Shown here: in pieces, positions 11,765-27,694 of the stretch
How positions within the stretch are numbered: position 1 is the first letter of the stretch
Layout: the number at the start of each line of letters is the position of its first letter
Source: a phage
DNA length: 64,000 bases
Direction: 5' to 3' (one strand)
Sequence record: OZ413487.1
Made by a program: the position numbers and the translations under genes
The notes under the pieces: model-generated
The model's input: the letters and a program-made list of their open reading frames with translations, nothing else
Database searches by the model: none
What the model was told of the DNA's origin: nothing

Positions 11765-11994
11765 TAATCCCAGTTAAGCGAAAAAGGAGGCTTGAAGATG
11801 AGCACTACACGCCAGCACACAAAGGTAACTATTATCGTTTGCATCATTGGTTATATCCTGGCGCAAATGTTGATGGGTAGCGCTAACGGTGTCGCAAAAT
11901 TTTTCTTAAACTTTTAATTGACAAGCTAACTTAGATCAGTATACTAAACACATAAACGGGAAAACTTCCCAGAACACCAAAAGGAGAAAACATT

Positions 11995-13517: not shown

Positions 13518-13778
13518 ATGCGTAAATTAAAAAATTTTGATAAAGTTGATATTGTCCTGAATAATTTTTACTACTGCAATAACAAGGCCGTTTGGTGGCG
13601 TGATAGTTCCACCGATAAAGTCAAGGCGCGCTTTCTCCAGGGGCACTGGCAAGGCCGCCCAGTGATTAAAATCATGGGGCAATTGGTAGCGTTTAAAAAT
13701 TGCCGCCGTGTTGATGACGTTGAAGAGATTTTAAACATTTTGCGCCACAATAATTTAAAAAATAGTGTTGACAAGTAA
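13518..13778 (+). CDS. hypothetical protein
   Basis: 86 aa; AAGGAG SD. Confidence 0.55.
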   Translation: MRKLKNFDKVDIVLNNFYYCNNKAVWWRDSSTDKVKARFLQGHWQGRPVIKIMGQLVAFKNCRRVDDVEEILNILRHNNLKNSVDK

Positions 13779-25558: not shown

Positions 25559-25822
25559 TCACCCAACAACCATAGCTTCAAAAGGAGTCATGAACGAATA
25601 AACGGCATCATCATCTGCTTCAGGGAATGCTCCCAAAGACTTCATATCTGAGCCCTTGACAAATACAAGGTTTTGATCAAAGGCTTCTTGGGGGTCAATC
25701 CGATACATATTTCGTAAAATATCGCTTACCTCCTCATCAAGAGGTGAGTATGCTGTGCACGTTTTTCCGATCAAGCTTTGAGAATCAGGGTATCCACCTG
25801 AAGTTTTAAAATAAACAATCAT
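25559..25822 (-). CDS. hypothetical small protein (family D-like)
   Basis: 87 aa; GAGGTGA SD. Confidence 0.5.
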   Translation of the reverse strand: MIVYFKTSGGYPDSQSLIGKTCTAYSPLDEEVSDILRNMYRIDPQEAFDQNLVFVKGSDMKSLGAFPEADDDAVYSFMTPFEAMVVG

Positions 25823-25913
25823 ATAGTATCACCTCTGGTAAGAGATTGGGACTCCTTTCCCACAAATAATTACAAATCTTCCTTAGCGAGGAAGTATGCT
25901 AATCCAAGCAGGA

Positions 25914-26183
25914 TTATTCCTCTACAATCTCATACACATCAGGAGTTACAATCAACTCTTCTCCGTTACCCGGTGCAACAAACACCACCAAACCTTCAGG
26001 TGTGTGCTTTTTAGCCATCTCGATAACATCTTCTCGCAGAGCTGGCTCCATCAGATCAAAACCTTCACCTAGGGCATCACGAACCACCTTCATATAGTCC
26101 ACTGGTTGTGCTTCAACAATCATGCCTTCAACCAGTCCACAATTTTTGTCTGCCAGCTCAGTTTGGAATAATTTAATTTTCAT
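25914..26183 (-). CDS. hypothetical small acidic protein (family B)
   Basis: 89 aa; GAGGAGA SD; hairpin downstream. Confidence 0.55.
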   Translation of the reverse strand: MKIKLFQTELADKNCGLVEGMIVEAQPVDYMKVVRDALGEGFDLMEPALREDVIEMAKKHTPEGLVVFVAPGNGEELIVTPDVYEIVEE

Positions 26184-26209
26184 TTAGAGGTCTCCTCAAT
26201 TATTTGATA

Positions 26210-26311
26210 TTAATAGCCGTAACCTAACACATTAACTACAACTGCGATTGCAAACATAATTTCAAAGCATGCAATCTCTACATTTGGGACTAATTTCTTA
26301 ATCACACCCAT
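26210..26311 (-). CDS. 33-aa hydrophobic peptide
   Basis: Below track cutoff; GGAGAATGAGGTG SD; immediately downstream of the HPF-like gene. Confidence 0.3.
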   Translation of the reverse strand: MGVIKKLVPNVEIACFEIMFAIAVVVNVLGYGY

Positions 26312-26320
26312 TGTAGCACC

Positions 26321-26638
26321 TCATTCTCCAAAGTCAATCTTTACTTTGCCTTTCCCCTTACCTTTCTTTCCACCGCATTTAGCCAGCTGACGTGCTGCAA
26401 CATCTACCATACGGTCAGTTGCCTCGTAAGCATCACTGCCTTTAGCCTTGGCAATAACTTCTTTTCCAGAATTGTCAAAAATGAACGCCATAACTTCCTG
26501 GTGATCATTTTCAACTTTTACACTCACACGTGCATAGTTGGCAGAGGGATGCAAACGCTCCAACTTAGACATTTTGTGGGAAATGAAAGACACCATACCT
26601 TCAGTGATTTCTACGTTGCCAGTGATTTCAATTTGCAT
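26321..26638 (-). CDS. ribosome hibernation promoting factor / RaiA-family homolog
   Basis: 105 aa; MQIEITGNVEITEGM...KLE...VSVKVE...ARQLAK follows E. coli HPF MQLNITGNNVEITEAL...KLE...VVLKVE...ARQLTK; K/G-rich C-terminal tail; AAGGAAC SD. Confidence 0.7.
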   Translation of the reverse strand: MQIEITGNVEITEGMVSFISHKMSKLERLHPSANYARVSVKVENDHQEVMAFIFDNSGKEVIAKAKGSDAYEATDRMVDVAARQLAKCGGKKGKGKGKVKIDFGE

Positions 26639-26685
26639 AACGTGTTCCTTTTAAAGAAGAGGGAACCGAACCCTCTTTGAAAACA

Positions 26686-26714
26686 ATGATACTAAATCTG
26701 AAGCGTTGTGTCAA
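26686..26714 (-). promoter_or_regulatory. sigma70-like promoter upstream of HPF-like gene
   Basis: Minus strand TTGACA-N17-TATCAT; 5' UTR contains hairpin aagaggg-ttcggtt-ccctctt. Confidence 0.5.
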
Positions 26715-26720
26715 CAGTTT

Positions 26721-27011
26721 TTACAGATTGTTGTCGATAGTTTTTAAAATATCCACAGCAAGATCTGCCATTTTTCGAACATACTCTGCAAACTCAACAG
26801 GATCCTTGATCAAAGAATTCACAGGGTCGTACCCTAGAGCGTTCAAAATGGCTGCAGCATCTACAACCTTCTCATCATTTGCGAAGATCTCTCCATCAAA
26901 CTTGTAGGTCCATTTTGAGTCAATCTTGGCAGGGAATGATTGGTCAACGCTTGTTACACCATCCTTTTTAAACGCTCCGGTGTTATCAGTGTCTAGAACT
27001 AAATCCATCAT
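26721..27011 (-). CDS. hypothetical protein
   Basis: 96 aa; GGTGAGGT SD. Confidence 0.5.
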   Translation of the reverse strand: MMDLVLDTDNTGAFKKDGVTSVDQSFPAKIDSKWTYKFDGEIFANDEKVVDAAAILNALGYDPVNSLIKDPVEFAEYVRKMADLAVDILKTIDNNL

Positions 27012-27028
27012 GTTAGTACCTCACCGTT

Positions 27029-27427
27029 TCAGTTTAGCTTTTCTTCAACAACCCCATAGCTCGGGACAGAGTCAAGAGCTTTCTGGTTTAAAAGTGGTGT
27101 AGCAGAATCTGCAAACGGTGTCCAAGTTTTTGTTCTGGCGTTCCAGTAATGCTTCACTCTGGAATCTGGATGCACTATAACAAAAACTTTTTCACTTGTC
27201 AACACATTAATTTCTTCCACACCCCTGCTGATAATTTCTCCGTCATATCCCCCGGTCTGGTATCCTTCGTACCAGGTTCTTGCATAGGCATAGCCAGCCT
27301 GCCAGCATGCAGCCTCCTCCGAGGTGGAGACTACGTAGAAGTCTTTCTCAAATTCTGGGATACGCCCTTGCTTTACGCTCCAAGCTCCGCGAATTTTCAT
27401 TGTAACTTTGAATAGTTTATTTTTCAC
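27029..27427 (-). CDS. hypothetical protein (family C)
   Basis: 132 aa; GTG start; paralog of 24827..25222. Confidence 0.55.
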   Translation of the reverse strand: MKNKLFKVTMKIRGAWSVKQGRIPEFEKDFYVVSTSEEAACWQAGYAYARTWYEGYQTGGYDGEIISRGVEEINVLTSEKVFVIVHPDSRVKHYWNARTKTWTPFADSATPLLNQKALDSVPSYGVVEEKLN

Positions 27428-27439
27428 AACGGTTACCCA

Positions 27440-27694
27440 TCACAGTTCTACAATATCTGCATCTGACCCTGCCCCAAAGGCATAATAGGACTCTTCCCCG
27501 AAATAATATTCCGGTGCACCAGCAGCGATCAGGTCTGATCCCAAAATGAATACCACGTTGTGGCCTACATAGCTGTGATTTTGCCGCACAGGATCATCCC
27601 ACGGCAACCCTTCGAAGTATACCGCAGGGACGACCTTTCCTTTCAGGAAGGATTGCCCCAAGTAGACGTTAGAATCAAGAATTTTAACCTTCAT
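27440..27694 (-). CDS. hypothetical small protein (family D)
   Basis: 84 aa; MKVKILDS...LIAAGA motif; GGAGGACG SD. Confidence 0.55.
   Translation of the reverse strand: MKVKILDSNVYLGQSFLKGKVVPAVYFEGLPWDDPVRQNHSYVGHNVVFILGSDLIAAGAPEYYFGEESYYAFGAGSDADIVEL

Follow-up and report, generated by a model that had tools for sequence, protein, structure and literature searches.

A phage homolog of the short ribosome hibernation factor HPF in an rV5-like Vequintavirus

The hpf-like gene and its neighbours

The window analysed here, a stretch of 64,000 nt of phage DNA from the sequence record OZ413487.1, belongs to an rV5-like Vequintavirus. In the 1.7 kb around the gene of interest, many Escherichia phages of this genus share 98-99% identity with the window; phage WalterGehring, for example, shows 98.9% identity over 1.7 kb. 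The gene is located on the minus strand (26321..26638), starts with ATG and encodes a protein of 105 aa, a homolog of short HPF which corresponds to ORF144 of phage rV5 (ABI79209). A 105-aa ORF had been described at this place in the initial annotation and was recovered as such; the span given at that time (26321-26714) additionally comprises the leader and the promoter. Most of the coding region (26372..26638, minus strand) specifies a Ribosomal_S30AE domain, while its last part (26324..26377, minus strand) encodes a Lys/Gly-rich C-terminal tail. As also noted initially, the surroundings consist of small genes: the hpf-like gene sits within a long stretch of small ORFs, all of them on the same strand. 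It is preceded by an ORF of 96 aa (26721..27011, minus strand), the stop codon of which lies just upstream of the hpf promoter. Downstream, a micro-ORF (26210..26311, minus strand) and an 89-aa gene without a Pfam match, the homolog of rV5 ORF146 (25914..26183, minus strand), are found.

The encoded protein is 100% identical to rV5 ORF144. In the rV5 GenBank record DQ832317, this ORF is designated 'sigma 54 modulation factor', with the promoter P144 immediately upstream and ORF145 immediately downstream. The protein length, P144 and the neighbours ORF143, ORF145 and ORF146 are all shared with the window, and there is no substantive difference between the two loci. In other records the protein is called ribosome hibernation factor, HPF or RaiA, the last name being used by many databases. 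ABI79209 was already listed among virus-encoded ribosomal proteins and discussed as an HPF by Mizuno et al. 2019 in Nat Commun (PMC6375957), and Mathieu et al. 2020 mention hpf in rV5 phages 'as already described' (PMC6969025). Our literature search for newer functional work on the Vequintavirus HPF found none past these 2019 and 2020 papers. The initial observation is correct, and it concerns no new object, as the gene, its family and its promoter are already known from GenBank and the literature under the names rV5 ORF144 and P144. What we add is that the gene is old and constrained, that the contact surface and the tail of its product are partly unlike those of host HPF, and that the hairpin in its leader is not a distinctive regulatory element.

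Two observations on database records concern this region. Eighteen MG0656xx entries, which are named 'Campylobacter phage' and list Campylobacter jejuni as the host, are 97-100% identical to rV5-like coliphages in the region corresponding to 25800..27500 of the window. They resemble coliphages to which a wrong host was assigned, or contaminants. Further, the records of the bov* and *_SA_NWU phages wrongly name the true hpf ortholog 'ATP-dependent protease La type I'.

The hydrophobic micro-ORF of 33 aa, which had been noticed directly downstream of the hpf-like gene, is present there (MGVIKKLVPNVEIACFEIMFAIAVVVNVLGYGY) and is annotated as rV5 ORF145. It starts 9 nt past the hpf stop codon. Translational coupling of the micro-ORF is possible, because its Shine-Dalgarno (SD) sequence GAGGTG (26322..26317) overlaps that stop codon. 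From its sequence, the product is plausibly a small membrane peptide which is translationally coupled to hpf; no significant match to it was found in Pfam. In 10 of 10 close relatives examined, the micro-ORF is open, exactly 33 codons long and preceded by an intact SD. Its codons 11-33 are nearly invariant in DNA. At the third codon positions (n = 34 sites) its identity to five relatives amounts to 88-100%, compared to 61-94% for hpf and the flanking genes, which at this number of sites hints at an extra constraint at the nucleotide level or at a recent sweep.

The micro-ORF is missing in L004, the corresponding locus of a sister lineage described below. There, a spacer (4313..4395 of L004) with a second promoter-like sequence AAACTGTTTACA-N17-TACACT and a hairpin with the arms CTGTAGT/ACTACAG replaces the micro-ORF and precedes the ORF146 homolog, the gene order being otherwise syntenic.

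We also considered the possibility that the 89-aa gene next door (25914..26183) is a second HPF gene. This was rejected, since the gene is without a Pfam match and thus gives no S30AE signal. Nevertheless, its homologs carry the label 'sigma 54 modulation factor' in KR698074, MN850578, MK883718 and other records. Apparently, this is an annotation error in which the wrong ORF was labelled, as seen in phage APCEc02, and which was then copied.

Promoter and leader of the hpf-like gene

A sigma-70-type promoter is located upstream of the gene (26686..26714, minus strand). It consists of the -35 box TTGACA (26714..26709), a spacer of 17 nt and the -10 box TATCAT (26691..26686), and it coincides with the element annotated as 'Sigma70-type promoter; P144' in the rV5 record DQ832317. 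This agreement supports the proposal that the gene has its own promoter; the description as a consensus promoter has to be modified to near-consensus, with 11 of 12 matching positions. The motif AAACTGTTGACACA is invariant across all relatives, including the locus of the 64%-identical ortholog in the sister lineage (L004). The SD sequence of the hpf-like gene, AAGGA (26646..26650, minus strand), was read from the sequence 7 nt 5' of the ATG and is conserved in the close relatives.

In the 64-kb window, 21 promoter-like sites agree with the consensus at 11 or 12 of the 12 positions, the P144 equivalent being among them, and the extended motif AAACTGTTGACA with up to two mismatches was found 23 times where 10 were expected. 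Judged by these motifs, P144 belongs to a group of host-type promoters in this phage, which would support an early expression of the hpf-like gene. Other sites of this quality in the window are, for example, at 27202 (-), 29169 (-), 43656 (-) and 59127 (+). A further promoter-like site with 10 of 12 matches (TTGACT-N16-TACAAT with an upstream TG; 26310..26337, minus strand) spans the 3' end of hpf and the start of the micro-ORF. According to its sequence, it could be an internal promoter for the downstream genes or a chance match.

The leader harbours a hairpin (26657..26677, minus strand) in which AAGAGGG and CCCTCTT form a stem of 7 bp, closed by the 7-nt loop TTCGGTT. It begins 1-3 nt past the predicted transcription start and lies between the -10 box and the SD. 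In this respect the initial description of a structured 5'-UTR was right. The structure is, however, a modest and statistically ordinary one. Its folding energy of -9.9 kcal/mol corresponds to z = -0.40, with 64 of 200 shuffled sequences being equally stable, and 8% of random 40-mers drawn from the window fold equally well. For 40-mers next to promoters, the mean energy is -5.6 kcal/mol compared to -5.0 kcal/mol for the background, so that overall they do not show more structure. In close relatives the hairpin occurs in altered forms with energies from -7.0 to -12.5 kcal/mol: most of them retain it with changes in the loop, in the Murica/nomo/V18 clade it is weakened (-7.0), and in one relative (L002) it is re-shaped (-8.3). 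It is absent from the sister-lineage locus, the leader of which comprises about 21 nt, and no match to it was found in Rfam.

Based on the z value of -0.40, the comparison with random 40-mers, the absence in L004 and the lack of an Rfam match, we rejected the idea that the hairpin is a regulatory structure. A function as terminator of the upstream gene was rejected as well, since the hairpin lies downstream of the promoter, is followed by a poor U-tract (CUUCUUUAAAA) and was not reported by the terminator scan. At most, it is a dispensable 5'-terminal stem-loop with a possible stabilising effect.

Compact, GC-rich hairpins are also found directly after several other promoters of the window. 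One of them (GGCGGGAAAACTTCCCGCC, -14.6 kcal/mol) follows the promoter at 13768 (+), and a related one (CGGGAAAACTTCCCAG) the promoter at 11918 (+).

Family membership, fold and conservation

The assignment of the 105-aa protein to the HPF/RaiA family was borne out. The profile search, which had been named beforehand as a test that could refute the assignment, revealed a significant match to Ribosomal_S30AE (PF02482) with 48.3 bits at a gathering score of 23.7 (E = 1.8e-12), in which residues 3-88 of the protein are aligned with positions 1-83 of the 88 profile positions. The score for TIGR00741, the NCBIfam model of the HPF/YfiA family, is also above the cut-off (45.9 vs 40.9). When the sequence is compared to proteins of solved structure, E. 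coli HPF ranks first (2rql, E = 5.4e-12), residues 1-89 being aligned to residues 1-89 with one gap. BLASTP against HPF of strain MG1655 yielded 38 identical residues of 88 (43%, E = 5e-18), while the identity to E. coli RaiA is 25%. The short motif matches listed in the initial annotation were reproduced with the real MG1655 hpf: MQIEITGN-VEITEGM pairs with MQLNITGNNVEITEAL, VSVKVE with VVLKVE and ARQLAK with ARQLTK. All near-invariant positions of the family (T12, K22, G58, A63, D69, Y71, D75 and D79 in phage numbering) are kept. The 105-aa ORF encodes a genuine member of the HPF/YfiA (Ribosomal_S30AE) family, and in sequence its product is clearly nearer to HPF than to RaiA.

The predicted fold, the second feature by which the assignment could have been refuted according to the initial annotation, is in agreement with it. 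An AlphaFold2 model based on a 22-sequence alignment has a mean pLDDT of 83, with about 90 over residues 1-89 and thus over the S30AE domain, and shows the order of elements E-H-E-E-E-H. A Foldseek comparison to the PDB gave 37 matches at E <= 0.001, and 37 of 37 are HPF/YfiA/pY proteins. The top match is HPF of V. cholerae (4hei_A, E = 1.9e-9), and with ribosome-bound E. coli HPF (6h4n_x) the model shares a TMt of 0.90 at an rmsd of 1.1 A. A dimerisation domain of the long HPF type was not found: the protein has 105 aa compared to about 180-190 aa, and PF02482 was its sole Pfam match at E <= 1.

At the level of the more specific models, the enterobacterial HPF equivalog NF007780 is not reached (55.8 bits at a cut-off of 125), nor is the RaiA model NF007654 (17.6 bits at a cut-off of 158). 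According to the NCBI criterion, the phage protein is, as far as its sequence tells, a divergent relative and no functional equivalog of enterobacterial HPF. It also matches phrog_8990 weakly (E = 1.5e-6), while the rV5 group forms a PHROG of its own, phrog_12469.

Among phages, tblastn at E <= 1e-3 detected the gene in 118 Vequintavirus records, and no match in phage groups beyond this genus was found at the same threshold. A scan of IMG/VR yielded just 2 loci, both of the ordinary rV5-like type. Two large protein searches, one of them word-indexed (5.8 billion proteins) and the other exhaustive with phmmer (1.84 billion cluster representatives), revealed a sole closer relative, a protein of 103 aa (P0004) with 64-65% identity; all others are at most 45% identical, and this limit applies to any cellular homolog among the 1.84 billion representatives searched by phmmer. 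The second-best phmmer match, P0006, was discarded. It is a protein of 1160 aa in which eight stretches were aligned with HPF residues 35-81, and it contains nine PPC (pre-peptidase C-terminal) repeats, making it a repeat-driven false positive.

The gene for P0004 lies on metagenomic contigs about 125 kb long, at an unchanged syntenic position. At the megablast level, only 15-19% of the 8.3 kb around it match known Vequintavirus isolates, which places P0004 in an uncultured sister lineage. Compared to this locus (L004), dN of the hpf-like gene is 0.31 and the synonymous sites are saturated. Within Vequintavirus, pairwise Nei-Gojobori estimates of dN/dS are 0.03-0.09 at dS values up to 0.75. 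This lineage has carried the hpf-like gene for a long time, and the purifying selection acting on it is strong.

Age and constraint argue against the view that the gene is a functionless passenger, that is a recently captured fragment of a host gene which is drifting. It could be held in favour of a passenger that the only ribosome test was negative (PMC6375957) and that the tail is frameshifted in two GenBank records. However, the low dN/dS, the presence of the gene in 118 of the 118 Vequintavirus records found and in the sister lineage with its saturated synonymous sites, and the conserved promoter and SD all speak for retention, and with an identity of at most 45% to any cellular protein among the 1.84 billion representatives the capture was not recent. 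We regard the passenger reading as effectively refuted and its remaining probability as negligible. The earlier view that the transfer was relatively recent (PMC6375957) has to be qualified on the same grounds.

Residues at ribosome-contact positions and possible roles of the phage protein

For enterobacterial HPF, 12 positions which contact the ribosome were given recently (bioRxiv 10.1101/2025.10.07.680626). When they are mapped onto the phage protein, K26, E60, R83, K87 and K91 are identical, and R83 is the residue which contacts m4C1402 in enterobacterial HPF (same reference). Two exchanges are conservative (Q29 to R and H62 to I), while T53 is altered to F, H55 to F, K80 to V and K89 to G. 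K80 is one of the four basic contact residues which E. coli HPF and RaiA have in common (bioRxiv 10.1101/2025.10.07.680626). Judged from this mapping, the ribosome-binding surface appears to be largely but not fully preserved.

The second difference to the host factor is the C-terminal tail. The Lys/Gly-rich tail that had been pointed out initially comprises the 18 residues past K87 (residues 88-105, CGGKKGKGKGKVKIDFGE) and has a net charge of +4, whereas 8 residues with a net charge of +2 follow in E. coli HPF and 26 residues with a net charge of -3 in RaiA. It is predicted to be disordered, residues 91-105 having pLDDT values below 50. Between the two phage lineages, the tail has not kept its sequence: in the sister lineage it consists of 17 residues of another sequence, which are also basic (net +4) and end with WDY. 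Moreover, the purine-rich tract coding for the GK residues (GGAAAGAAAGGTAAGGGGAAAGGCAAAG) is frameshifted in two records, those of APCEc02 (KR698074) and Murica (KT001917), resulting in proteins of 101 aa and 99 aa with truncated or altered tails. This could be due to a sequencing error at a homopolymer or could reflect natural variation of the tail.

Thus, compared to the short HPF of E. coli (YhbH, 95 aa; structures 2rql, 6h4n and 6y69), the phage protein has the same fold and 43% identity over 88 residues, with equivalents of K26, E60, R83, K87 and K91 and the family-invariant residues, and it differs by T53F, H55F, K80V and K89G and by the tail of 18 instead of 8 residues. The genes also differ in their context, E. 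coli hpf being encoded downstream of rpoN and the phage gene being under the control of a phage sigma-70-type promoter. With RaiA (also YfiA or protein Y, 113 aa), the phage protein shares the fold, the family and the presence of a C-terminal extension past the length of short HPF. Here the differences are the low sequence identity of 25% and the tail, that of RaiA having an acidic end. The tail of RaiA is reported to head to the RMF site, and the tail of short HPF to do so less clearly (bioRxiv 10.1101/2025.10.07.680626). Because of this path of the RaiA tail, the phage tail could confer RaiA-like properties on the protein, which would then be 70S-locking and RMF-excluding.

Mizuno et al. addressed the function of rV5 HPF by expressing it in E. 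coli NM522 with the plasmid pBAD24. The crude extract contained peptides of the protein, but none were detected in 70S and 100S ribosomes prepared at high salt, and the expression had 'no discernible effect' on the 100S fraction (PMC6375957). In this respect, too, the phage protein differs from the short HPF of E. coli, which converts the 90S dimers induced by RMF to 100S particles: expression of the phage protein did not promote 100S formation. An unsuitable growth phase, lost binding and dissociation by salt were named by the authors as candidate causes, and the result was called inconclusive (PMC6375957).

Taking these data together, we consider it probable, though far from certain, that the protein is an rV5-type homolog of bacterial short HPF which docks in the decoding channel and exerts a RaiA-like control over idle ribosomes. 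According to this proposal, hpf would have been acquired from a gene of the gammaproteobacterial type before the known rV5-like lineages split, and kept since then by purifying selection; the 64%-identical ortholog at the same syntenic position in the sister lineage supports it. During infection, the gene would be transcribed from the host sigma-70-type promoter within the block of small genes, probably early and probably in one transcript with the 33-aa ORF145 and the genes downstream. The folded domain may then dock, like HPF and RaiA, in the decoding channel of the 30S subunit of vacant host ribosomes, where it would overlap with the A- and P-site tRNAs and the mRNA, and the retained helix residues K25, R28, R83, K87 and K91 are the likely points of attachment. 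The longer, basic and disordered tail would continue toward the mRNA exit and the RMF side, as the tail of RaiA does. In this way the phage protein could compete with host HPF, RaiA and RMF, and the idle pool would be held as RaiA-like 70S complexes, with no 100S dimers being promoted. The outcome could be that ribosomes are preserved or controlled in slow-growing or starved hosts.

The unchanged 100S fraction upon expression (PMC6375957) fits such a non-dimerising, RaiA-like mode, and we count the basic tail of intermediate length in its favour as well, given the reported path of the RaiA tail. Against it counts that the sole direct experiment was negative, lost ribosome binding being one of the causes listed by the authors (PMC6375957). 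The exchanges T53F, H55F, K80V and K89G, the NF007780 score of 55.8 at a cut-off of 125, and a tail which is not conserved and is frameshifted in two records also count against it.

Some of these data can be read differently. Mizuno et al. speculated that a viral HPF competes with the host factor and thereby prevents the dimerisation of ribosomes (PMC6375957). Extended accordingly, the phage protein would be an anti-hibernation decoy, which by weak or transient competition for the HPF/RaiA site prevents or reverses the 100S and 70S hibernation of the host, so that ribosomes are free for phage mRNAs. The absence of a stable association after the salt wash and of a 100S increase (PMC6375957) is consistent with a decoy, the loss of contact residues by T53F, H55F and K80V could lower the affinity, and the longer tail could clash with RMF. 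However, any occupant of the decoding channel blocks the binding of tRNA and mRNA, and it is not obvious how weak binding alone would activate ribosomes. Moreover, 100S ribosomes were not reduced either, the expression having had 'no discernible effect' (PMC6375957). A decoy is conceivable in our view, but on balance rather unlikely.

The altered contact residues T53F, H55F and K80V, the longer basic and disordered tail and the missing co-purification with ribosomes in one experiment led us to consider a more specialised tool of the phage. Such a tool might be a RaiA-like, RMF-excluding factor which controls or wakes hibernating ribosomes in dormant hosts or, less likely, a protein of HPF fold which, by analogy with Acb4, has taken on a non-ribosomal ligand such as an immune nucleotide. 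We rate this reading as doubtful. In general, phage hibernation factors bear on the way in which lytic phages deal with translation when their hosts grow slowly or are dormant.

The analogy refers to Acb4 of phage SPO1 (gp1.3, PF13876), an anti-CBASS sponge with a dsRBD-like fold resembling V. cholerae HPF 4HEI (PMC11722364). Like the protein studied here, which is probably expressed early as well, it is a small early phage protein with a dsRBD-like alpha/beta fold. Sponges of the Acb4 type are tetramers which bind 3'3'-cGAMP. On this basis, the phage protein could be a neo-functionalised HPF/dsRBD-like fold with a non-ribosomal ligand, acting as a sponge for immune nucleotides or on another RNA target. 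It fits that 4HEI is also the top fold match of our model, that the neighbourhood of the gene consists of small uncharacterised early genes, a setting shared by many anti-defence genes, and that ribosome association went undetected in the experiment (PMC6375957) while the contact surface is partly changed. On the other hand, the Pfam search gave no match to PF13876 at E <= 1, the 37 significant fold matches are without exception HPF/YfiA/pY proteins and the 50 Foldseek PDB matches listed include no Acb4 structure. In addition, the 43% identity to E. coli HPF covers the domain from end to end, and invariant residues of the family, R83 and K87 among them, are kept, as predicted for ribosome binding. 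A role apart from the ribosome is accordingly improbable. The specific case of an Acb4-like sponge was rejected, since neither a PF13876 match nor an Acb4 fold match was obtained and the supplementary files of the screen for Acb4 revealed no rV5-like phage.

Turning back to the HPF family itself, the rV5 protein shares its Pfam family with AFC21633 of Cronobacter phage GAP32, both being encoded by large myoviruses. The gene of GAP32 represents an independent acquisition, its product having been grouped with Firmicutes-like sequences (PMC6375957).
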